Below, one piece after another: positions 1 to 11,839 of a DNA stretch of 11,839 nt (positions are counted from its first letter, which is position 1; every line of letters starts with the position of its first letter). The position numbers and the translations under genes are program-made. The stretch is from a virus. Lineage: Duplodnaviria > Heunggongvirae > Uroviricota > Caudoviricetes. Location of the stretch: the IMG/VR virus record IMGVR_UViG_2744054854_000008, positions 1 to 11,839 of that record; one strand, written 5' to 3'. The notes beneath the pieces are model-generated. The model saw nothing but the letters and a program-made list of their open reading frames with translations. It was not told the origin of the DNA and made no database searches.

Positions 1-585
1 CTATTCGATAATGGGTACTGTTGGCCATTCAATATCCGGTGCAGTTGTTGTATTAACACGGTTCAGCAACACCCGATATTTTTTCCAGGCTTCCAGCAAT
101 GAGGTTTCTTCCTCCGTTGCGATCTCCAGATCTACAGCATCCTGAAGTGGCGCTATATGCTCACTGGCTACCTGCATCAGGCTGTTTTTTGTTTCTTCCG
201 CCTCCCGGATCCGGAACAGTTTTTCTGCTTCCGTATCCTTCACCCAGGCTGTGCCGTTCCACTTCTGATATTCCCCTTCCGGCGATAACCAGGTGACATT
301 TTCCGGTAATGAGCCGAGTTCAGAAATAAATAACGCGTCGCCGGAAGCCACGTCATAAACCGTTTTACCCCGATGATCTTCAACGAGATGCCACGATGAC
401 TCATCACTGTTGAAAACAGCCACGAAGCCAGCTGGAATATCTGGCGGTGCAATGTCGGTACTGTTTGCTGGCAGACCTGTATGAGGCGGAATATATGCGT
501 CACCTTCACCAATAAATTCATTAGTTCCGGCCAGCAGATTATAAATTTTTATGGTCCGTGGTTGTTCACTCATTCTGAATGCCAT
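1..585 (-). CDS. tfa: Tail fiber assembly protein (lambda Tfa-like chaperone), 194 aa, complete
   Basis: Full ORF with ATG at 583-585 and stop at 1-3. Translation ([24 protein letters not shown]...EWPTVPIIE) is collinear with lambda Tfa as I recall it. Its start overlaps the stf stop (TAATG on the minus strand), the classic stf-tfa coupling. Confidence 0.9.
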
Positions 586-3500
586 TATGCAAGCCTCACA
601 ATATAGTTAAATGCGATGTTTTTGACGGTGTTTTCCGCGTTACCAGCAGCGTTAACGGTGATGGTGTGTCCATGTGAGCCAATCGCAACCGAGTGCGTAT
701 GAGCACCAATACCGACAGTATGTGCGTGTGCACCTGCGCTTGCAGCAGTACCCGATACAGAGTGCGTATGAGCGCCTGCAGAAGAAGTGTTAACACTGTA
801 TTTAGAATAATCAGGTGATCCACTTCCCGGAGCACCACTGGAACCACCTGAAACAAATGTCATCGAATGGGTATGTGCACCGGCTGAAGCAGCCGTACCG
901 CTAACACTATGGGTATGCGCACCAGTGTTATTCGTGGATTTAGTGCCGTAATCAAACGACGATGTGGTTTTCGTCCCCAAATCAGTACTGGATGCGCTGG
1001 CGCTGTGGGTATGCGATTTTATGCCGTCCTGTTCCTGAGACAATACGGCACGACCACTGGCGGGCTTGCCCTTAATCGTCCAGCCACGCATATCAGGGAT
1101 CACGCCTGACGGATAAGCGGCTGCAAGTTTCGGGTAGGCAGATTTGTCAAAAGTCTGCCCCTGCATCAGGGCATAACCAGACGGAACGGTATCTGATGGC
1201 CACGGGATTGGTGCGCCGACTGGGTAGCTTTCTGGTGGAAGATTTTTCGAGGTATAAACTTCTGCCCAGTCTTCCTCAAAACCATAACCGTCTCTTGAAG
1301 AACGGTAGAACAGACCACCATTTCTGTAATGCGCCTTCATCTGCAGGGTCCGGCAACTTCCGACTCCGGTATAGAAGTTAACCAGAATATAGCTGTCGCC
1401 AGAGCGGGTGACATTATAAGCGCCTGATTCGGCATTCCAGGGAACGCCACCATCCGCATCGGCATATGTATCCGTTGCCCTTCTGGCAAAAGCAGCCACA
1501 TGCGCGGCGGTTAAAGTGATATCAGTAGAACCATCAAATGGAACACCGGATATTTTTCTTGCAGTCTGGAGTTTTGTAGCAGTTGCAGCATTACCAGTAG
1601 TGTTCTGATTACCCGTAGTGTTTACACCTGGAAGGTTAATATTTGCAGAACCGTCGAAAACAACTCCACCGATAGATCTTGCCGTCTGCAATTTCGTGGC
1701 TGTACTTGCATTACCATTCAATGAACCAGTTAATCCACCTGTAACAGACAACGGACCTGAAACTGTTCCTCCGGTTGTTGGCAGTGCTCCAATATCTGAT
1801 GGTGTAGGTTTCTGATGTGAGCTATACATCGTATAAACAACACCATAGGTAACGCTGGAAGGCTTACTCGCTGAATATGTTGGCGAGGTATAAACAGAAA
1901 CTGACGCATTTGCAGTACAATCCCAATGGATATTTACACTCGTCGCATAATTGCCAATCTCAACGTAAATATCATATGTATCGCCGGATGTGTTGATCCA
2001 GGCGAAATTCGTTAATCCGACGGCTGTACGCTTCCACAAAGCCCCGGTAATTCCTTTGGGGTTTCCATTGCCTGCTCGTAGAACCAGTTCTGAAATGCCT
2101 GCCTGATGTGGGGAACCGACGTTGTAACCAGCGCCACCAATCAATGCGATGTAAACGATGGAACTCGTTTGTGGCATGGTAACCGTAGCCAGTTTGAACC
2201 ACCCAGCCCCGCCAGAGAAAGACATCGTTACTGAATTTAAAGTACCAATATCTTTCGGCGTTAATGTTATATCCGCAGTCAGTGCTTTTCCGTTAACTTT
2301 TCGGTTAGATGGCACCCTGCTATTCGCATTGTCATTGGCTGCTTTAACTGCTTTTGGCGTTGCGGCCAGCGATTCACTGGTGCTATCAACAGCACTGCTA
2401 AGTTTCACAACACCTTTAGTTGTAAGGCTTGCGTCTTCCATCGCAACTGCACCGGCAATCTCTTCAGCACGATCAGCAGCAGCTTCCGCACGGGTCGCAG
2501 CGGATTCAGCAGTAGTTTTGCTCTGAGATGCCGCCGTCGCACTGCCAGCAGCCTCTGTTGCCTTCGTGGATGCCGTCGTGGCGCTGCCCTTCGCTGCTGA
2601 CGCTTGTCTGGTCGCCTCATCTTTTGAAGCAGACGCCGATGAGGCCGATGACGCCGCCGAACTGGCGGACGATGCGGCAGCCGTTTTTGAGGATTCTGCG
2701 CTGGTTTCCGACGCTTTCGCGTTCGTTTCGGATGTCTTCGCTGCGGAAGCTGACCTCGCTGCTGCGCTGGCCTGTTCAGTGGCTTCGCCAGCCTTCGTTG
2801 TGGCTGTTGAAGCGGACGATGCGGCGCTTTCTGCCGATTTTCCGGCGGCGCTAGCACTGGCTGAGGCCTGCCCGGCACTTGTTGACGCTGCACTGGCAGA
2901 CGACGCAGCCGCTGTTTTTGAGCCTGCCGCAGCCGAGGCGCTCTGTCCCGCTGCCGTTTCAGAAGACCTGGCGTTTGTCTCGGACGTCTTTGCCGCCTTC
3001 GCGGAATTGCCTGCTGCCGTTGCCGAGGAAGCGGCACTACTGGCGCTTGATGATGCGTTCGTTTCTGATGATTTCGCTGCCTCTTTTGAGGCCGCCGCAT
3101 CCCGGGCTGAGGTGGCTGCTTCTGACGCCTTCGTGGTCGCGGCGGATGCAGAAGTGGCTGCTGATTGTTGTGACGCTGCCGCATTCGTTTCTGACGTTTT
3201 CGCCGTAGCGGCACTGGTAGCTGCCGCGCTTTTTGAGGACTCTGCAGCAGCAGCACTTTTCGATGCTTCACTGGCCTTTGTTGATGCCGTTCCTGCGCTG
3301 GAAGATGCTGACTGAGCCGACGACGCGGCCTGTCCGGCTGACGTGCTGGCTGCGCGTGCTGAGCCTGCAGCATCAGTCGCATGGGTTGCCGCCTCACGGG
3401 CTGATGTGCTGGCATCGCTGGCTGACTTCTTCGCGGCTGCCGTGTTCTGTGCCACCGCGGACGCGTTACGCGCCACCTCTTCCACCATCAGTTCAAAACG

Positions 3501-3812
3501 GCGCAGTGCCTCAGGACGGGCATCATCCTCCGTCATGGCACCGAGAAAATCATTCAGCGTACCGGGTCGGGAATCTTCATACACGGTGATGGTCCCGGCA
3601 TGTGACGGCGGGAATCCCTCCACCAACAGAATAACGCTGTACTGCCCGTACTCAACGTCCATGCTGTAACGCCCGGCTTCATCCGGATTTTCTGAGGCCA
3701 GCGTGTTCACCACCACCGTGGTGCTGTTACGTTTTGCTTTCAGCTGGATTGTGCAGTTCTGTACCGGTTTTCCTGTGCCGTCTTTCAGTACACCTGAAAT
3801 CTTTACTGCCAT
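585..3812 (-). CDS. stf: Side tail fiber protein (lambda Stf-like), about 1075 aa
   Basis: N-terminus [26 protein letters not shown] and C-terminus ...GAHTHSV...[15 protein letters not shown] match lambda-type Stf. Long Ala/Ser/Thr-rich central region and C-terminal GAHTH (HxH) repeats. Likely start is the ATG at 3810-3812 with GGGGTG upstream; the ORF track's start at 3818 is an upstream in-frame GTG. Stop TAA at 585-587. Confidence 0.9.
2400..3480 (-). repeat. GC-rich low-complexity repeat region inside stf, encoding reiterated Ala/Ser/Thr-rich motifs ([26 protein letters not shown])
   Basis: The translation shows many imperfect repeats of short A/S/T motifs. The DNA is dominated by GCN/TCN/ACN codons, which is why long spurious ORFs open in other frames and on the opposite strand here. 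Confidence 0.5.
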
Positions 3813-3823
3813 ATTCACCCCAC

Positions 3824-3850
3824 AAAAAAGCCCGCCTGAACCGGCGGGCT
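3824..3850 (-). terminator. Rho-independent terminator downstream of lom
   Basis: Plus-strand gcccgcc(3830-3836)/ggcgggc(3843-3849) inverted repeat with a 6-nt loop, preceded on plus by A6 (3824-3829). On the minus strand this is a GC stem followed by a T6 run, 27 nt after the lom stop. Confidence 0.6.
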
Positions 3851-3876
3851 GTCATAACACTGTGTTACCTGGCTAA

Positions 3877-4476
3877 TCAGAATTTATAACCGACACCCAC
3901 GATGAAACCGTCAGTGCGCCAGTCACCACTGCCGGAGCCTTCATAAGCAATATCAATGGCCACGGATTCGGTCGGGTTAAACTGCACGCCAGCCCCCCAC
4001 GCCAGAGACGTGTTGCTGTGGCGACCGTCATCACTTCCGGTCAGCACATCGTGCTTTTTCCCCTTGTTGTCAGTTACGCGAAGATAATCCCCGGAGAAAG
4101 TCGACACACGGCTGTAAGCCACACCCGCCATCGCATACGCGCTGAACCATTCATTCACGCGCACAGACGGCCCCGCCATTACGCTGAACCAGCGGTTACG
4201 CACGGAATCTTCATGCCAGCGGGTATCGCTGTAACGGGTAAGCTGGCGATTCTTGTCTCCTGCATAGCTGAATGACGTCACCATTCCCAGCGTGTCCGTA
4301 AACTCATAACGGTATTTCACGTTAATCCCGTTCAGATCATCGCTGCCGGAAACGTTCGTCGAGGCATGAAGATAGCCCGCGCTCAGCGTGGACTGATGTT
4401 CAGACGCCCATGCAGGCGCACCGGATACGGCCAGACAGATGGCTGCGGACAAAATGGCGGCATAAAGTTTACGCAT
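3877..4476 (-). CDS. lom: Outer membrane beta-barrel protein Lom (Ail/Lom/PagC family), 199 aa, intact
   Basis: ATG at 4474-4476 with GAGAGG Shine-Dalgarno upstream. Signal peptide [24 protein letters not shown], alternating amphipathic beta-strand pattern, C-terminal aromatic residue (…GVGYKF). Sits between J and stf as in lambda. Confidence 0.9.
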
Positions 4477-4497
4477 AATTACCTCTCGCTTTTCTGC

Positions 4498-4524
4498 AAT
4501 AAAAAAGGCGTCATTTCTGACGCC
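4498..4524 (-). terminator. Rho-independent terminator downstream of the J fragment
   Basis: ggcgtca(4507-4513)/tgacgcc(4518-4524) 7-bp stem with tttc loop. On the minus strand the hairpin is followed by TTTTTTATT (plus 4498-4506 aataaaaaa). Confidence 0.6.
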
Positions 4525-4542
4525 CGTTCTGGGTTATAAAAT

Positions 4543-5910
<1,368 letters not shown>

Positions 5911-5920
5911 TTATGCCCTC

Positions 5921-5944
5921 CATTAAAAATGGGGCCGAAGCCCC
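5921..5944 (-). terminator. Rho-independent terminator downstream of the 461-aa gene
   Basis: Minus strand reads GGGGC-TTCG-GCCCC (plus 5931-5944) followed by ATTTTTAAT (plus 5921-5929), starting 10 nt after the TAA stop at 5955-5957. Confidence 0.55.
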
Positions 5945-5954
5945 GTTTGAATGT

Positions 5955-7340
5955 TTAACCAAGAATCAGACAACCATGTGCCGGCTTCACTGATGAAACA
6001 CCCCATGCCAGTCCAACTTCATAGCGCACCTGGCGATACTGACGATACAGTGCAATCTGGAACGTAATCCCTGAAATCGGGTCCGTAACATTCATTACAT
6101 CATCAGCATTATCGCCACCTTCCGGCATTGCCGGAGTACGGGATGCCAGCAGAAACGCGTTGCGATCAAACGCCATATTTGCCGTAAAGGCCCCAACAAC
6201 TGTGATGGCAGTATCATCGGCCAGATCCTGACGCAGTCCGGGCGCTGCAAGAGTAATCAGATTGCTGGTCGCTGCTGCCACAACATACTGATTCGGATCA
6301 CCAGCGAACGTAACAATCTGACCTGCAGAAATACTCCCCGAACCAGTATCAATGGAAATAAGAACATCGCCTTCTTTTTTCTCTCCATTCACGAGATAAC
6401 CAGTTGCAGCAACCTTTGGCGCTCGTTTCACACCTGCCGAACTGTGAATATTGAATCCCTCCAGACGCCCCAACACGCCCTCACGCAGTAGCTGTTCAGT
6501 GCCGGATTCATTCACTTTAAACAATACAGACTGTTTTCCGCGCAAATTAGCAATGGCAGTGGAGCCAAGCACCATCTGCAGATCGGTTGTCGGTGCGCCG
6601 TTATCCTCCAGAACCTGACGAGCCAGAGCAGCATCAGAAAGATCATCTTTAACACCAAACGGCGTTGTCCCTGCGGTTCCCACGGCGCGGGAAGCACCGA
6701 AATACAACGCACCAAGATCAGCCTCAACCTCGTTTGCAAGGGCGCGAAAAGCCTGCTTGAACTGATCAGCCAGAATGGTGTTGTAAGTCCCTGAAGGGCC
6801 AAGAGCCAGTTGTTCTTCACCATTCCATTTAACCGGTGCCATTTTGGATTTAGTAATTTTTACATCAACAGTGCCAATATTTTGATCACCGGTAAACATG
6901 CTGTTAATAGCAGTGCGGTTACCGGGCAAAACATCCGTCAACAGTTCATCAATTTCTGTCGGGATGAAGCCTGTCAGGGAGACATCAAAATCAGCATTGA
7001 TTAGGTCCGACAGCTCCATCCGCAACAGATCTTCATCCCAGCCAGCATTCATCGGCAGGCGATTATCTGCCAGGCGGTACGCCTTTTTCTGCTCATCCGT
7101 CAGGCCAGACAGAACAATGACCGGAACAGAATCCATTTTGAGCATTTCAGCCGCCATAACACGACCGTGACCCGCAATAATTTCGCCCTTTTCGTCAATC
7201 AGCACCGGATTAGTCCAGCCGAATTGCTTAATACTTTCTACCAGTTGTGCCACCTGCTCAGGGCTGTGCGTCCTGGCGTTGTGCGCATACGGTGACAATT
7301 CTTGTAATGGGCGATAGACTATCTTTAATTTCTCGCTCAT
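5955..7340 (-). CDS. ParB-like nuclease (ParB/Srx fold) N-terminal domain protein with an unassigned ~320-aa C-terminal region, 461 aa
   Basis: ATG at 7338-7340 with AAGG upstream. Residues ~8-95 (IVYRPLQELSPYAHNARTH...IIAGHGRVMAA...VPVIVLSGLTDEQKKAYRLADNRL) carry the ParB N-terminal domain pattern, with GHGR in place of the canonical GERR. The Gly/Ala/Thr/Val-rich C-terminal part has no motif I can assign. Followed by a terminator. Confidence 0.75.
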   Translation of the reverse strand: MSEKLKIVYRPLQELSPYAHNARTHSPEQVAQLVESIKQFGWTNPVLIDEKGEIIAGHGRVMAAEMLKMDSVPVIVLSGLTDEQKKAYRLADNRLPMNAGWDEDLLRMELSDLINADFDVSLTGFIPTEIDELLTDVLPGNRTAINSMFTGDQNIGTVDVKITKSKMAPVKWNGEEQLALGPSGTYNTILADQFKQAFRALANEVEADLGALYFGASRAVGTAGTTPFGVKDDLSDAALARQVLEDNGAPTTDLQMVLGSTAIANLRGKQSVLFKVNESGTEQLLREGVLGRLEGFNIHSSAGVKRAPKVAATGYLVNGEKKEGDVLISIDTGSGSISAGQIVTFAGDPNQYVVAAATSNLITLAAPGLRQDLADDTAITVVGAFTANMAFDRNAFLLASRTPAMPEGGDNADDVMNVTDPISGITFQIALYRQYRQVRYEVGLAWGVSSVKPAHGCLILG

Positions 7341-7477
7341 ACAGCCTTGCTTTATGAATAAAACGCCCCCCAGCAGCCAGTGCTACTGGGGACGGAGGGG
7401 TTGCTGGTAAAGTTAGGTATTGGATCAATGAGTGAGTCAACATAATATTAAACTCACAATTATAAATCAGCCATATA

Positions 7478-8935
7478 TTAGGAGCGCCAAAAAAAACCTG
7501 AAAACAATATAATAACAGGATAAATTTCAAGGCGACCAAGAATCATAGCTATGCACATTAAACATTTTGCAATGTCATTAAGCACTCCGAATGACGATGC
7601 AGTAGCCCCAAAACCTAATCCCATATTATTAATACATGCAGCCACTGTTGCAAATGATGTAAGAAAATCATATCCCATACCATTTAATACCAGTATAAAA
7701 AACACCGTGAAGAGAGTATAAAGAAAAAAGAAACTCCATACAGACCTCATTACACGATCTGTAACTATCTTCCCTCCTACATTTACACTCAACAACGCTC
7801 TGGGATGAGAAAGCTGATTTATCTCGTGTTTGCTTTGTTTGAAAAGTATAAGAAATCGAAGTGACTTAATTCCACCACAAGTTGAACCTATACATCCCCC
7901 AAAGAAACTTGACAACAGCAAAAACACTATCGTGTGCGTGGGCCAACTTGCATAATCCTGCGTAGCTAAACCATTATCAGTGAGCATGGAACTGGCAAGA
8001 AAAAACGAATGAATAAAACTTCCATGCAAGTCATACATACCTATATGCCAGACCTGGAAAGAGGTAACAATGATCACCCCTAAGGCTATTAACAGAAAGA
8101 AACGAAGTTCAATATCTCTGATTAAAGGTTTTATCGTTTTCCTGCTAATAACAATATACCAAAGAGTGAAGTTGAAAGCCGATAGCAGGGAAAAAGAACC
8201 AGCCACCAGCTCAACCAAATAGTTATTAAAATATCCGATACTCTCGCTATGAGTTGAGAAACCACCAAGCGAAACTGTGGAAATCCCGTGACAAATAGCA
8301 TCAAACAAAGGCATTCCTGCAAGTCTATAACAGACAATACAAGCAATACCTAATAAAGAATAAGTTATCCACAGTGTCCGTGACGTATCGGCCAGGCGGG
8401 GAGTGAGTTTGTCATCCTTAAATGGCCCCGGCATTTCTGACTGATAAAGCTTTGCACCACCAATACCCAATAATGGCAATACAGCAACCGCCAGAACAAT
8501 AACTCCTAAACCACCTATAAAATTTAACTGTGACCGATAGTACAAATATGCCCGAGGTAATGAACTAACATCATCAATTACAGTTGCTCCTGTTGTTGTT
8601 ATTCCAGAAACCCCTTCAAACAGAGCATCAATGAACGTTAAATTAAGTTCTGAGTCAATCCATAAAGGGAATGCACTAATAACAGAAAACAAAATCCAAA
8701 ACATTACAATTATAATAAACCCATCACGGGTACGTAATTGAATGCCAGATTTCTTAGTTGTATACCACGCTCCGCCACCAATGCAAAAAAATATAACGAA
8801 AGTTATAAAGAAAACGAACAGGCTTTTTTCTTTATAAAACAATGCTACAACCATTGGTGGCAACATTGAAAGACTATAGAGCCAAACCAGGAACCCACAC
8901 ATATGAGTAACAACTCTTACATGAGATGTATTCAT
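7478..8935 (-). CDS. trkG: TrkH/TrkG-family K+ uptake transporter (Rac-prophage TrkG-like), about 485 aa
   Basis: Multi-pass membrane protein. N-terminus MNTSHVRVVTHMCGFLVWLYSLSMLPP is as I recall TrkG, and the reiterated pore-loop GG(L/F)G-type motifs fit the TrkH family. Coding DNA is visibly AT-rich compared with its flanks. Start taken as the ATG at 8933-8935; an in-frame TTG at 8951-8953 with AGGTGG 6 nt upstream is an alternative (491 aa). Confidence 0.9.
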   Translation of the reverse strand: MNTSHVRVVTHMCGFLVWLYSLSMLPPMVVALFYKEKSLFVFFITFVIFFCIGGGAWYTTKKSGIQLRTRDGFIIIVMFWILFSVISAFPLWIDSELNLTFIDALFEGVSGITTTGATVIDDVSSLPRAYLYYRSQLNFIGGLGVIVLAVAVLPLLGIGGAKLYQSEMPGPFKDDKLTPRLADTSRTLWITYSLLGIACIVCYRLAGMPLFDAICHGISTVSLGGFSTHSESIGYFNNYLVELVAGSFSLLSAFNFTLWYIVISRKTIKPLIRDIELRFFLLIALGVIIVTSFQVWHIGMYDLHGSFIHSFFLASSMLTDNGLATQDYASWPTHTIVFLLLSSFFGGCIGSTCGGIKSLRFLILFKQSKHEINQLSHPRALLSVNVGGKIVTDRVMRSVWSFFFLYTLFTVFFILVLNGMGYDFLTSFATVAACINNMGLGFGATASSFGVLNDIAKCLMCIAMILGRLEIYPVIILFSGFFWRS

Positions 8936-8939
8936 ATCT

Positions 8940-9010
8940 AAATATTCTTTCAATTATAACCACCTTGCTGCAATATTATGATTATACTGTATAAAATTTA
9001 ACTCCTCTTA
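8940..9010 (-). promoter_or_regulatory. Candidate trkG promoter in an AT-rich intergenic region
   Basis: Two minus-strand TATAAT hexamers (plus attata at 8953-8958 and 8981-8986) in a 137-bp AT-rich spacer between the Rz stop and trkG. Neither has a good -35 element, so this is weakly supported. Confidence 0.2.
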
Positions 9011-9072
9011 GATCTTACTTCACTGTTCCTTATGAAACAATCATCAAAATGAATCATATTGTAGTTAAGATT

Positions 9073-9363
9073 TTACTTTAAACACTGCTCGGTTATGTAT
9101 TGCTGAGCACCTTCAAGTTGGGCCTGCATCATTACCAGTCGTTCCCGGAGGGTGAAATAATCCCGTTCAGCGGTGTCTGCCAGTCGGGGGGAGGCTGCAT
9201 TATCCACGCCGGAGGCGGTGGTGGCTTCACGCACTGACTGACAGACTGCTTTGATGTGCAACCGACGACGACCAGCGGCAACATCATCACGCAGAACATC
9301 ATTTTCAGCTTTCGCATCAGCTAACTCCTTCGTGTATTTTGCATCGAGCGCAGCAACATCACG
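9073..9363 (-). pseudogene. rzpR: N-terminally truncated Rz (i-spanin) remnant, C-terminal ~97 codons
   Basis: Hand translation gives RDVAALDAKYTKELADAKAENDVLRDDVAAGRRRLHIKAVCQSVREATTASGVDNAASPRLADTAERDYFTLRERL..., collinear with the lambda Rz C-terminal two thirds. Similarity stops abruptly upstream of codon R at 9361-9363; the signal-anchor N-terminus and a start codon are missing. Confidence 0.7.
9132..9317 (-). CDS. rzoR: Rz1-type o-spanin outer membrane lipoprotein, 61 aa, embedded in the +1 frame of the Rz remnant
   Basis: ATG at 9315-9317. MRKLKMMFCVMMLPLVVVGCTSKQ... has a lipobox (VVGC), and the Pro-rich mature part (KPPPPPAWIMQPPPDWQ) matches lambda Rz1 nearly residue for residue. 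Confidence 0.8.
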   Translation of the reverse strand: MRKLKMMFCVMMLPLVVVGCTSKQSVSQCVKPPPPPAWIMQPPPDWQTPLNGIISPSGNDW

Positions 9364-9422
9364 CGGACTTGTGCAAGTTGCCAGGAGGATCTGGAGCTTA
9401 TCAGTAAACAGAGAGGTTCGAA

Positions 9423-9830
9423 GTGAGCGAAATTAACTCTCAGGCACTGCGTGAAGCGGCAGAGAAAGCCGGTGAAGATAAGTGGCAGGCTAAAAAAATA
9501 AATGGTGATTTTTTCGTTATTCGTCACGGTAGTTATACAAGACAGCATGGCTACACATCGTATCAACCCATTGCGGAGATTGATTGTAAGCCAGTCCGGG
9601 ATTTTGTTGCCAAGGCTAATCCGGCTACCGTGCTGGAATTACTGGATGAACTGGAAGCAGCAAAAAAGCGCATTGCAGAACTGGAAGCGCGGGAAATACT
9701 GCTCCCGGAACGTAGCAGCATGCTTCATCGAACAGATTTTCACGATGATTACCAAACGGTAATGGCATACAAAGTTTCTGAAGTCATCGATGCAATCCGC
9801 GCTACTGGCATTCGCATCAAAGGAGAGTGA
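9423..9830 (+). CDS. Phage Ead/Ea22-like family protein (function unknown), 135 aa
   Basis: GTG start at 9423 with GAGAGG upstream; stop TGA at 9828-9830. Motifs QALREAAEKA and ANPATVLELLDELEAAKKRIAELE are what I associate with Ead/Ea22-like proteins of lambdoid prophages. The family assignment is from memory. Confidence 0.55.
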   Translation: MSEINSQALREAAEKAGEDKWQAKKINGDFFVIRHGSYTRQHGYTSYQPIAEIDCKPVRDFVAKANPATVLELLDELEAAKKRIAELEAREILLPERSSMLHRTDFHDDYQTVMAYKVSEVIDAIRATGIRIKGE

Positions 9831-9831
9831 G

Positions 9832-10587
9832 ATGATTCACTACCACGGTGGGCCTATTACTCCTGATACGTGCGCAATGAGAGCATGGAAAGGGCGACAT
9901 GCGTTTATCAGTTTTGCGCATTCAGGCCAGATCAATCTCGCGGCTGAATACTGTCAGTCGTTCGCGCTGGACAACGGTGCATTCACCGCCTGGAAAGCAG
10001 CTGGCAAAAACAAAATCGACTGGAGCGATTACTACGAGTTTGTTGCTCGCTGGAAGAATCACCCAGGATTCGATTTTGCCATTATCCCGGATATTATTGA
10101 TGGCGGAGAGGAGGAAAATGATGCGCTTCTGAATGAGTGGCCTCACGGAAAACTAGCTGGCGTTCCAGTGTGGCACATGAATGAAAGTGACGCGCGATTT
10201 ATTCATTTGTGCAATGAGTTTCCGCGAGTGGCTATCGGTAGTTGTGGCGACTATGACGTAAAGCGCCCAACTCTTGCGGTAGCCAGAATGAAAGACCTGA
10301 TTCGTCACATTGTTGATGGGCATGGTCAGCCGGTTACGAAACTACATGGATTGCGCATGTTAAATCCGCTGATATTCACAAAATTACCCTTAGCCAGCGC
10401 AGATAGTACGAACGTCGCTCGAAACATCGGTATTGATAAAGCCTGGTCTGGGGCTTATGCACCTGCAAGTAAAGAGACACGCGCAGCATTAATGGTAGAA
10501 CGGATTGAGGCACACAATAGCCCTGGTTCTCTTGCGTATTGTGAACAACGCGACCGCTTTGAAATGCAATTGCAACTAGCAGTTTAA
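9832..10587 (+). CDS. Hypothetical protein with TGT-like (tRNA-guanine transglycosylase fold) motifs; candidate DpdA-type 7-deazaguanine transglycosylase, 251 aa
   Basis: ATG at 9832 with AGGAG 6 nt upstream, 1 nt after the upstream stop; the track's start at 9790 is an upstream in-frame ATG. Motifs in TGT order: FALDNGAF (cf. TGT LTDSGGFQ), GFDFAIIPDI (cf. GSDIVMIFDE), HLCNEFPRVAIGSCG (cf. HVCPQIPADKPRYLMGVG), ADSTNVARN (cf. FDCVMPTRNARN, nucleophile Asp). No CxCxxC...H zinc motif. The gene call is solid; the functional call is a hypothesis. Confidence 0.6.
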   Translation: MIHYHGGPITPDTCAMRAWKGRHAFISFAHSGQINLAAEYCQSFALDNGAFTAWKAAGKNKIDWSDYYEFVARWKNHPGFDFAIIPDIIDGGEEENDALLNEWPHGKLAGVPVWHMNESDARFIHLCNEFPRVAIGSCGDYDVKRPTLAVARMKDLIRHIVDGHGQPVTKLHGLRMLNPLIFTKLPLASADSTNVARNIGIDKAWSGAYAPASKETRAALMVERIEAHNSPGSLAYCEQRDRFEMQLQLAV

Positions 10588-10597
10588 GGACTAACAA

Positions 10598-11839
10598 ATG
10601 ACCACTATTACCAAAGAACGTATTGAATTGTTCATTAAAAATCCGCTTGAAAACGGGCTTACTCGTGGCGAACAAATGGAACTGGCACGAATTGCACTGG
10701 CATCACTGGAACGCGAACTGATTCGCCACGAGCATGCCAAATGGTCTGACTCCACATTTGGCTGCGTTGGCCCCATTGGTCCACTGAAACACCTCTCAAA
10801 AGAGGCTCTGGAAGCCGCAGCCGAACCAGACGATCTCAGCGAGTGGGCTGATATGCATTTCCTGTTGTGGGATGCACAGCGCCGTGCTGGCATCAGCGAT
10901 GCTGAAATTACCGCTGCTATGGAAGATAAATTGAAGATCAACATGGAGCGCCAGTGGCCTGAACCAAAAGATGGTGAGCCTCGCTTGCACATTAAAGAAC
11001 CCGGCAACTCTCCGGTAATTCCGGATGGTTTATCCACGGTATGCGCTGAGGCTTATCAGGTTGTAGGAGTTATGGCAGATGCGCTTGGTGTATTCGGTGA
11101 TGCAGCAGTACAGAAAGTTCTGGATAACCTGTCACAGCAAAAACTTGTTCACAGAGATGTGCTGCCGTTCTCGCTTCCGGTGACTCCGGATGGTTGGATA
11201 AGCTGTAGTGAGCGAATGCCGAAAGAGGCAATAGCTGAAGGCCATATAACAACAAACCCTGTCGCTGCCACTCGCGCAGCAAAATCAGAGGTAAGGAGAT
11301 CAAGACTTACGGCTGACGAATACCTGAAAATTTATCAAGCAGCAGAATCATCACCATGTTGGCTCAGACTTGCAATGGAACTGGCTGTTGTTACCGGGCA
11401 GCGAGTTGGTGATTTATGCGAAATGAAGTGGTCTGATATCGTAGATGGATATCTTTATGTCGAGCAAAGCAAAACAGGCGTAAAAATTGCCATCCCAACA
11501 ACATTGCATGTTGATGCTCTCGGGATATCAATGAAGGAAACACTTGATAAATGCAAAAAGATTCTTGGCGGAGAAACCATAATTGCATCTACTCGTCGTG
11601 AACCGCTTTCATCCGGCACAGTATCAAGGTATTTTATGCGCGCACGAAAAGCATCAGGTCTCTCCTTCGAAGGGGATCCGCCAACCTTTCACGAGTTGCG
11701 CAGTTTGTCTGCAAGACTCTATGAGAAGCAGATAAGCGATAAATTTGCTCAACATCTTCTCGGGCATAAGTCGGACACCATGGCATCACAGTATCGTGAT
11801 GACAGAGGCAGGGAGTGGGACAAAATTGAAATCAAATAA
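10598..11839 (+). CDS. Chimeric tyrosine recombinase: non-integrase N-terminal ~209 aa fused in frame to a lambda-type Int catalytic domain (~203 aa), 413 aa
   Basis: ATG at 10598 with TAAGGA 7 nt upstream; stop TAA at 11837-11839. From residue ~210 (EAIAEGHITTN...TGQRVGDL...FHELRSLSARLY...HLLGHKSDTMASQYRDDRGREWDKIEIK) it is near-identical to the lambda Int C-terminal catalytic domain, including the R...HxxR...H...Y residues. Residues 1-209 do not resemble the Int arm-binding or core-binding domains. Confidence 0.8.
   Translation: MTTITKERIELFIKNPLENGLTRGEQMELARIALASLERELIRHEHAKWSDSTFGCVGPIGPLKHLSKEALEAAAEPDDLSEWADMHFLLWDAQRRAGISDAEITAAMEDKLKINMERQWPEPKDGEPRLHIKEPGNSPVIPDGLSTVCAEAYQVVGVMADALGVFGDAAVQKVLDNLSQQKLVHRDVLPFSLPVTPDGWISCSERMPKEAIAEGHITTNPVAATRAAKSEVRRSRLTADEYLKIYQAAESSPCWLRLAMELAVVTGQRVGDLCEMKWSDIVDGYLYVEQSKTGVKIAIPTTLHVDALGISMKETLDKCKKILGGETIIASTRREPLSSGTVSRYFMRARKASGLSFEGDPPTFHELRSLSARLYEKQISDKFAQHLLGHKSDTMASQYRDDRGREWDKIEIK

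Follow-up and report, generated by a model that had tools for sequence, protein, structure and literature searches.

Six deletion junctions and their partly legible order in a lambdoid prophage remnant at attλ of Escherichia coli

The DNA studied here is an 11,839-nucleotide stretch of a tailed-phage record, IMGVR_UViG_2744054854_000008 (positions 1 to 11,839; "the window" hereafter means this whole stretch), and it belongs to a decayed lambdoid prophage of Escherichia coli. We consider it likely that the element is a 13.99-kb remnant of a mosaic prophage of some 46 kb at attλ, that it was reduced by illegitimate recombination at six junctions (A, B, C1, C2, D1, and D2) whose order is partly legible, and that one of these deletions, B, was favored. 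As a cryptic lambdoid prophage restricted to one clone, the element itself adds one more case to those already known; the added value lies in a staged series of deletions within that clone and in a deletion hot spot in the gene ynaK.

Location of the element and its six junctions

The window matches the chromosome of E. coli 2018-10-1CC (NZ_AP021894.1, 3152906-3164744) at 99.9% identity over all 11,839 bases, and a second record of equal length gives the same match. According to the flanking annotation of that strain, the chromosomal neighbors of the element are ybhB/bioA on one side and ybhC on the other. The lambda att core, GCTTTTTTATACTAA, is present there as two exact direct copies (L001 9941-9955 and 23913-23927; 0.09 expected by chance), which stand 2,060 nt before the start of the window and 74 nt past its end, and the whole att-bounded remnant measures 13,987 bp, of which the window is most. 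The prophage lies in its natural orientation (ybhC-int ... J-lom-stf-tfa-bio) and keeps the gene order typical of lambdoid phages, int-ea...Rz...J-lom-stf-tfa, with the strands matching. The ttcA site, which is that of Rac, is empty in the same strain, with uspF directly adjoining ttcA. The element is a lambdoid prophage at attλ (ybhC/ybhB) with both att cores intact and, given this location and its lambda-type int, it is not Rac in the K-12 sense, which would sit at ttcA.

Between one att core and tfa, outside the window, lies a low-GC gene for a MASE4-GGDEF diguanylate cyclase (L001 10596-11927), which looks like the dgcX of Richter et al. by its position and its MASE4 and GGDEF architecture only; dgcX has been reported to travel with remnants of lambdoid prophages at attB (Richter et al. 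2014, PMC4287979). The element is a lambdoid mosaic, made up of a lambda-type int, Shiga toxin (Stx)-phage-type ea genes, a Rac-type late arm with trkG, and a dgcX end. The int fragment shares 98.4-99.2% identity with its counterparts in phage Chlobot and the TOK-001 attλ prophage, the ea region (window 9364-11220) is 99.7% identical to Stx1a phage EH2115, where it is contiguous, and tfa matches that of other attλ prophages linked to dgcX at 98.5% identity (comparison with L008).

Junctions were mapped by alignment to the intact references L005 ("Salmonella phage SPF_0923," ON032529), L006, L003, and L011 and to a sister contig without B (Table 1). There are six in total, each with 1 to 4 nt of microhomology, and at every one of them both flanks run on uninterrupted in the intact references. 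No long repeats connect the junctions, and these short microhomologies point to RecA-independent illegitimate recombination. The breaks cut genes in the middle of domains, at about residue 152 of Int, about residue 58 of Rz, residue 68 of the capsid protein, and residue 685 of J. At junction A, the DUF551 side is 100% identical to other genomes up to 11226 and the lambda-type int side begins at 11224, so that the 413-aa fusion has residues 1-209 of a 262-aa dATP/dGTP-pyrophosphohydrolase plus DUF551 protein and then Int from about residue 152, its catalytic domain. Junction B shares a single nucleotide (C), or 4 of 5 positions in the imperfect match C[T/G]GAC. The 461-aa fusion consists of residues 1-140 of ParB/YnaK, 11 residues of the minor head protein, and capsid residues 68-379. 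Islands 1 and 2 are co-linear with the rest of the late region and the capsid piece between them is 983 nt long; beyond island 2, window 5889-2331 aligns with L005 22243-25801. Untemplated filler or a snap-back copy, considered for 22 nt at D, was ruled out by the 28-nt tail-tube match.

Table 1. Features and junctions of the window, in order of position
Feature	Coordinates	Strand	Remarks
tfa, tail fiber assembly (chaperone)	1..585	-	Intact, 194 aa; Pfam Caudo_TAP, PGAP
stf, side tail fiber	585..3818	-	Uninterrupted open reading frame (ORF) of 1075-1077 aa; phage_tail_N and Collar domains
Terminator-like hairpin between lom and stf	3829..3850	-	8-bp stem, 7 GC pairs, T run
lom, Ail/Lom outer-membrane beta-barrel cargo gene	3877..4476	-	Intact; Pfam Ail_Lom
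J', C-terminal 449 codons of tail-tip J	4543..5889	-	Dead fragment, from codon 685 of 1132
Junction D2	5889-5887	-	CTG shared; island 2 to J codon 685
Island 2, 28 nt, 3' end of tail-tube gene	5887..5914	-	Exact match to L011 12606-12633
Junction D1	5914-5912	-	ATA shared; 43 nt past capsid stop to tail-tube island
ParB::capsid 461-aa fusion ORF	5955..7340	-	Pfam ParB_N and P22_CoatProtein; PHROG 620 and 283
Island 1, 34 nt of minor-head (SPP1 gp7-like) gene	6888..6921	-	L005 7826-7859
Junction C2	6894-6891	-	TACC shared; island 1 to capsid codon 68
Junction C1	6921-6920	-	TA shared; ParB codon 140 to minor-head island
Recurrent deletion take-off point, ynaK nt 421	6920..6926	-	Reads ...CCCGGTA up to the break; L005 2355
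Strong terminator-like hairpin downstream of trkG	7367..7392	-	11-bp stem, 7 GC pairs
trkG, TrkH-family K+ transporter, cargo gene	7478..8935	-	Intact; Pfam TrkH, E = 5e-145
Rz', C-terminal 96-97 codons of i-spanin	9073..9364	-	Pfam Phage_lysis positions 31-125/126
Junction B	9364	.	Rz' and DksA' head to head, each cut at its 5' end
DksA', DksA/TraR-like zinc-finger gene, last 21 codons only	9364..9426	+	Annotation and alignment to references
ea22-like gene	9423..9830	+	Intact, 135 aa; Pfam Ead_Ea22; 100% identical to L006
Candidate DpdA/TGT-like transglycosylase	9790..10587	+	Intact ORF, 251-265 aa; PHROG 887
DUF551 protein::Int 413-aa fusion ORF	10598..11839	+	Pfam dATP-dGTP_PPHyd, DUF551, Phage_integrase
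Junction A	11224-11226	+	AGA shared; DUF551 ORF residue 209 in frame to Int at about 152

The initial annotation, made from the sequence alone, had proposed three breakpoints and a possible fourth, described as in-frame or near in-frame deletion scars. Its coordinates were accurate to within about 25 nt, but the actual count is six. The breakpoint near 11225, from an accessory gene into the Int catalytic domain, maps to 11224-11226, and the one placed at 9364-9420, from the Ea22 region into mid-Rz, maps to 9364, where Rz' meets DksA'. The break at 5900-5920 is real (5912/5889) and does lead into mid-J, but the gene upstream of it is the capsid part of the ParB::capsid fusion and not a ParB-like gene. 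The break suspected inside the 461-aa gene is also real and is double (C1 and C2). With respect to frame, A, C1, and C2 do join native frames (chance (1/3)^3 = 0.04), whereas B is head to head and D follows a stop codon. That these are deletions and not ancestral boundaries was borne out, since natural adjacency of the joined genes was found neither in 50,697 phage records nor in 5,426 genomes outside the clone described below. Each of four junction searches returned the same junctions in 2 of the 5,426 complete E. coli genomes, both belonging to this clone, and none of the 50,697 phage records covers 80% or more of the window. Searches for C1 and B in metagenome contigs and for D in species-representative genomes gave no hits.

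Losses amount to about 1.5 kb at A (estimated), 11.43 kb at B, 5.47 kb at C1, 2.03 kb at C2, 2.65 kb at D1, and about 8.7 kb at D2, and because of these summed losses over the six junctions the parent prophage is placed at about 46 kb. The functions lost are excision, replication, lysis, and particle building. Junction A took Int residues 1 to about 151 together with xis. Junction B removed 11,434 nt of the immunity, replication, and lysis region, comprising exo, bet, gam, kil, cIII, N, a cI-like repressor gene, cro, cII, O, P, and Q, as well as the holin and lysozyme genes and the Rz N terminus. The terminase, portal, and tail genes were removed by C and D. Judging from its gene content, the prophage would be unable to excise, replicate, lyse its host, or build particles.

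Order of the deletions within one clone

From the complete genomes the junctions at first seemed confined to a single isolate, a view that was overturned when draft and Logan (read-assembled) data were searched for exact copies of both fusion proteins. All six junctions recur in at least six other NCBI assemblies. In five samples, however, the A fusion is present yet the early region is intact (SRR22302940, SRR17276612, SRR33598516, GCA_958334095.1, and GCA_019370505.1), and the three Logan contigs among them, those with SRR accessions, also carry C1, C2, D1, and D2. Compared with the window, the rebuilt SRR22302940 contig (SRR22302940_17) differs by 4 single-nucleotide polymorphisms (SNPs) over 1185-9368 (8184 nt) and by 0 SNPs over 9364-11839 (2476 nt), and between both stretches it keeps 11,434 nt running from exo through lysozyme together with the full Rz. 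Because these sister isolates hold A, C, and D but still keep the 11.4 kb missing at B, B is the most recent deletion. The carriers are successive stages inside one clone, since they differ by 0 to 1 SNP across the 3.8 kb of the chromosomal ybhC-ybhJ flank; another dgcX strain differs there at 32 of 2366 sites.

The block removed by B has been disrupted in other ways within the same clone. GCA_003293125.1 (L031) has A together with an independent overlapping deletion, B', that runs from mid-lysozyme to mid-ea22 (progenitor 8514-19800). A further deletion in this assembly joins ParB' to the C-terminal part of stf (window 1092 joined to 6920); its losses are lom, J', the two islands, capsid', and the greater part of stf, and its starting point in ynaK is that of C1. 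In SRR17276612, an element of the IS21 family of insertion sequences (IS) with istA/istB lies between cro and cII (L024 1269-3070; L033 275-2076), the third independent hit on the immunity-replication block in this clone.

We propose the following history. Deletion A would have come first, with the loss of the end of an ea gene, xis, and the N-terminal domains of Int leaving a prophage unable to excise. C1, C2, D1, and D2 would also be early, the packaging, head, and tail genes disappearing and two islands of about 30 nt plus the 983-nt capsid piece being left. This late-region deletion would have started at the ynaK hot spot described below and continued by serial template switching primed on 2 to 4 nt, of the type known as microhomology-mediated break-induced replication (MMBIR). 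The C and D junctions probably come from one event, because two co-linear islands of about 30 nt are very unlikely to arise from independent deletions. A second compound allele of the same late region, unrelated to that of the window, is found in L089, where the island is 938 nt long.

Later, B would have taken the 11.4-kb immunity/replication/lysis block. Induction of a locked-in prophage that retains its replication and lysis genes kills the cell without any phage yield. A prophage that was locked in by A and still carried cI, O, P, Q, and the lysis genes would therefore kill its host upon induction, and B would have removed this danger. Because B and B' are independent and an IS has hit the same block in one clone, B appears to have been favored by selection against dangerous genes more than by selection for keeping useful ones. 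The remaining content would be whatever lay outside the deletions, that is, cargo genes and dead fragments alike. A single clone in public assemblies preserves successive stages of prophage disarming: at the earlier stage the prophage was locked in and without heads or tails, with immunity, replication, and lysis kept, and this block was then lost twice independently.

Some observations weigh against this history or parts of it. No isolate with A alone, or with C and D alone, was found among the carriers, which bears on the order of A relative to C/D and on the claim of one event; comparative genomics, which the initial annotation had put forward as a way to order the deletions, places B last but does not separate A from C/D in the isolates found. 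Selection for B has behind it one parallel case (B') and the IS21 hit. In addition, CGGTA or CCGGTA ends one joined segment both at C2 (window 6891-6896) and at B' (L031 3030-3037), and this recurrence of the pentamer of the ynaK site may hint at a sequence-specific cut, which the proposed history leaves unexplained. Lastly, promoter-like sites are overall no commoner than chance, with 13 found and 15 expected in a consensus scan of the window, and so lend no support to expression of the retained genes; one promoter-like site lies at 9082-9053.

A recurrent deletion endpoint in ynaK

The left end of C1 (ynaK nt 421; ...TTTTGCCCGGTA up to the break) is common to at least nine other deletion alleles, nucleotide-exact and with differing partners. 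From this point the CP66-6-type Rac joins L005 9726, the LR-64-1 Rac joins 26437, and L031 and L134 join 26838; among IMG/VR contigs, L066 joins 8899 and L117 joins 4223, and L075, L108, and L052 share the endpoint as well. One allele joins the middle of an IS5 transposase gene, its junction reading GGTAC up to the break, which places it no more than 1 nt from this point. The endpoint is 558 nt downstream of trkG and all deletions run rightwards, away from trkG. Sequence from the right-hand side of the site is present in 107 contigs, in none of which it has a different left partner. At the other end, TA precedes the partner site in intact sequence in 9 of 9 alleles (chance about (1/16)^9), and TA is part of the microhomology at 13 of 49 distinct junctions in Rac-type late arms, compared with 1.5 expected. 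Among complete genomes, about 991 run intact across the site and about 108 have a break no more than 100 nt away; 108 of 116 IMG/VR contigs are uninterrupted there.

Landing sites were surveyed in the Rac-type late arms of IMG/VR loci L036-L158 and of genomes, and some recur in independent alleles (L005 4220, 7826, 13749, 20356, about 24260, about 24515, and about 26437). K-12 Rac and L077 both land at L005 13749, and L097 lands where island 1 begins. The CP66-6 Rac landing site (L007 about 14259) reads CTATTTATACCG, inside which TTTATAC equals the 7-bp overlap of the lambda att core, possibly by coincidence.

Several causes of the hot spot were considered. A hairpin was ruled out (z = -0.6), as was the end of an IS or transposon, since there is no inverted copy of the end and most IMG/VR contigs continue uninterrupted through the site. 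Intact ParB likewise reads through it, matching PHROG 620 over residues 1-250. Inspection by eye found no Chi site near the endpoint and no resemblance of the site or its partners to Hin/Gin/Pin crossovers. A terminase cut is unsupported, as the related phage HK639 appears to start near terS by a rough inference from the position of its capsid gene.

The polarity of the deletions would agree with the way in which replication forks travel at ttcA and at attλ. We tentatively suggest, as a possibility somewhat short of an even chance, that ynaK nt 421 is a site-specific, one-directional deletion origin at which a fixed 3' end re-primes on a downstream TA, sometimes in multiple hops and always sparing trkG. 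A replication barrier might underlie it, or else a nick, for which the ParB-like protein, cutting within the gene that encodes it, is a possible agent. Should this be so, some of the apparent "domestication" of Rac-type prophages would reflect a mutational bias inherent in these elements, and the survival of trkG may come from that bias instead of selection, because deletions start downstream of trkG and run away from it. The ynaK endpoint and its TA rule, if confirmed, would give a family of E. coli prophages that is very widespread a deletion hot spot.

Deletion hot spots caused by replication arrest were reportedly described at terB by Bierne, Ehrlich and Michel in 1991. By analogy, the terB hot spots and MMBIR or fork stalling and template switching (FoSTeS) would resemble the ynaK deletions in having one fixed and one variable endpoint, short microhomology, and compound templated junctions. 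In contrast, there is no Ter site, hairpin, or known barrier at ynaK nt 421, and those systems are not known to obey a strict TA landing rule; the likeness would be one of mechanism only.

Retained genes, alternative explanations, and related elements

The initial annotation had concluded that the element was a minimal domesticated prophage in which potentially host-useful functions with intact signals had been selectively retained. Under this explanation, selection kept trkG, lom, the DpdA-like gene, and stf/tfa to give a minimal beneficial element, which we find doubtful, though parts of the claim stand. Three genes are clear cargo, trkG and lom within the window and dgcX immediately beyond it; all of them are intact, and a uniform random-placement null spares all three in only 0.5-1.9% of trials. 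Of the 1551 genomes having any trkG sequence, 1542 have the gene at full length, and the copy in the window, at 99.7% identity, has 0 nonsynonymous differences from K-12 trkG. A dgcX-type end adjoins tfa in 632 of 5426 complete E. coli genomes beside variously decayed prophages (compare PMC4287979). The side tail fiber and its chaperone are complete, as had been claimed. As for the signals, a hairpin scan places terminators after trkG, J, and lom, and those flanking trkG and lom are intact, but the promoter scan was no better than chance. On the other hand, the remnant is not minimal, since dead fragments (J', capsid', ParB', Rz', DksA', the piece of the DUF551 ORF, and int') take up about 37% of the window. 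The ratio of nonsynonymous to synonymous substitution (dN/dS), which had been proposed as a check on the retained ORFs, is uninformative about retention: it is 0.04-0.2 across intact genes (lom 0.10-0.12, stf 0.13-0.17) and equally low, at 0.07-0.2, in dead J' (0.12) and int' (0.07-0.20), with too little post-deletion divergence to measure. Because the dead fragments show it too, the low dN/dS predates the deletions, which are too recent for power; capsid', ParB', and Rz' are 100% identical to intact copies elsewhere. The element is also confined to one clone, with no deep vertical history. Other remnants have lost stf, tfa, or lom (K-12 has lomR::IS5, ECCWS199 lacks J and lom, and CP66-6 lacks the tail genes through tfa), and L031, a sister isolate of the same clone, has deleted lom and most of stf. 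The polar ynaK hot spot predicts the survival of trkG, and the uniform null is post hoc and ignores both hot spots and selection against lethal genes. In the sense of domesticated defective prophage credited to Bobay et al. (2014) in PMC6379469, the element is indeed defective, but it is not inherited across diverged lineages (2 of 5426 complete genomes, and one clone among drafts). "Minimal domesticated prophage" accordingly overstates the evidence; the element has undergone ordinary prophage decay and long-term domestication is not supported. As a caution, "retained useful genes" can mirror the sites at which deletions start and not selection.

The other explanations differ in how the junctions or the modules came about. 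If the joined gene pairs were naturally adjacent in some lambdoid phage, the junctions would be ancestral module boundaries, which might be expected of mosaic lambdoid phages, of an element that combines modules of different origin, and of ParB residue 140 or so, a domain boundary where many PHROG families diverge. This is hardly conceivable, however, when every junction cuts a gene in mid-domain with both sides continuing in intact references, no phage record covers 80% or more of the window, and the junctions were found in one clone only; for B it is refuted by the sister isolates that hold the 11.4 kb. Neutral random decay, through independent, unselected, and randomly placed deletions over a long time, would account for the short microhomologies, which are typical of spontaneous RecA-independent deletions, and for the many different deletion alleles of other Rac-type remnants (49 distinct junctions). 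Yet the two co-linear islands are very unlikely products of independent events, at least nine alleles share the exact ynaK endpoint and each lands on TA, B and B' are parallel in one clone, and fragments 99.4-100% identical to intact copies mean that little time has passed, all of which makes such decay very unlikely. It is also unlikely that Rac itself moved, the strain's own Rac late arm recombining into a resident attλ prophage and emptying ttcA. The trkG arm is 99.6-99.8% identical to the Rac of K-12 and ECCWS199, ttcA is unoccupied in this strain, and dgcX-bearing ends and Rac arms do swap sites (strain SE11, PMC4287979), but an empty ttcA is unremarkable when trkG is absent from 72% of E. 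coli genomes (trkG arms occur in 28% of complete genomes), the same late arm is found beside other neighbors (L005 next to sitABCD), and no recombination joint was identified. The trkG-bearing prophage of PK5074 (~0.8 Mb) was considered as an intact attλ parent and rejected, being a near-complete Rac with recET.

We compared the six-junction attλ remnant with related elements individually. The comparison with K-12 Rac suggested by the initial annotation was apt for the late arm, which is Rac-like at 99.6% identity over the trkG/ynaK segment (window 7087-9368), but every breakpoint differs and the element is at attλ. The K-12 Rac right arm reads rzpR'-trkG-ynaK-ydaY-ynaA-lomR-stfR-tfaR and has the same order, Rz'-trkG-ynaK'-...-lom-stf-tfa, both elements being truncated in Rz and ynaK. 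K-12 Rac, however, is at ttcA with intR, whereas the window element has a lambda-type int and no recET, kilR, racR, or pinR. In K-12, ynaK is broken at nt 254 and joined to ydaY plus a tape-measure fragment, lomR carries an IS5, and Rz' runs on past 9364, which rules out a common Rz breakpoint; the tfa and dgcX end of the window element belong to the attλ family. K-12 ynaA (L002 18455-19483), upstream of lomR, is a tape-measure fragment (L005 13749-15508) and not a J fragment, and for this reason the tail-side junction is not common to K-12 Rac and the window. The dgcX-associated attB remnants (PMC4287979) resemble the element in having a diguanylate cyclase gene between the att core and tfa and variable decay, but the window element has a Rac-type trkG arm and is 14 kb long, compared with the 29.9-kb E24377A remnant (PMC4287979). 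SPF_0923 is co-linear and 99.4-100% identical over the trkG, ParB, and capsid pieces, but it is intact across all four late junctions and lies beside sitABCD with no attλ context. The intact late arm, as present in SPF_0923 and IMG/VR contigs, reads Rz-trkG-ParB(263 aa)-...-terS-terL-portal-minor head-scaffold-capsid-...-tube-...-tape measure-...-J-lom-stf-tfa.

Among the retained genes, trkG is low in GC (about 38-40%), and the Ail_Lom match of lom spans 1-199/199 positions of the family (E = 3e-119). We would expect trkG, lom, and dgcX, which are self-contained cargo genes, still to be expressed. The middle of stf (about 1595-2326) is mosaic relative to the references. J' keeps the Pfam domains Ig_J_second, Phage_Tail_Tip, and Ig_GpJ_C, and PGAP flags it as "missing N-terminus." Rz1, the o-spanin lipoprotein gene, is an embedded 61-aa ORF at 9132-9317 (-) that is complete within the truncated Rz, and it is also called in sister contigs. 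The DpdA-like candidate matches PHROG 887, "queuine tRNA-ribosyltransferase" (E = 6e-102), and has no match in Pfam, NCBIfam, or the PDB sequences; no preQ0 synthesis genes are present near it. Compared with the Stx1a-phage copy, it has 4 nonsynonymous and 0 synonymous differences, and the pL promoter that served it is deleted. Elsewhere in the host genome, two IS1 elements lie in the anion-permease gene beside ybhJ (L001 27935-30090; L009 27007-29280) and tynA has an internal stop codon, which we read together as signs of ongoing gene loss in the strain.

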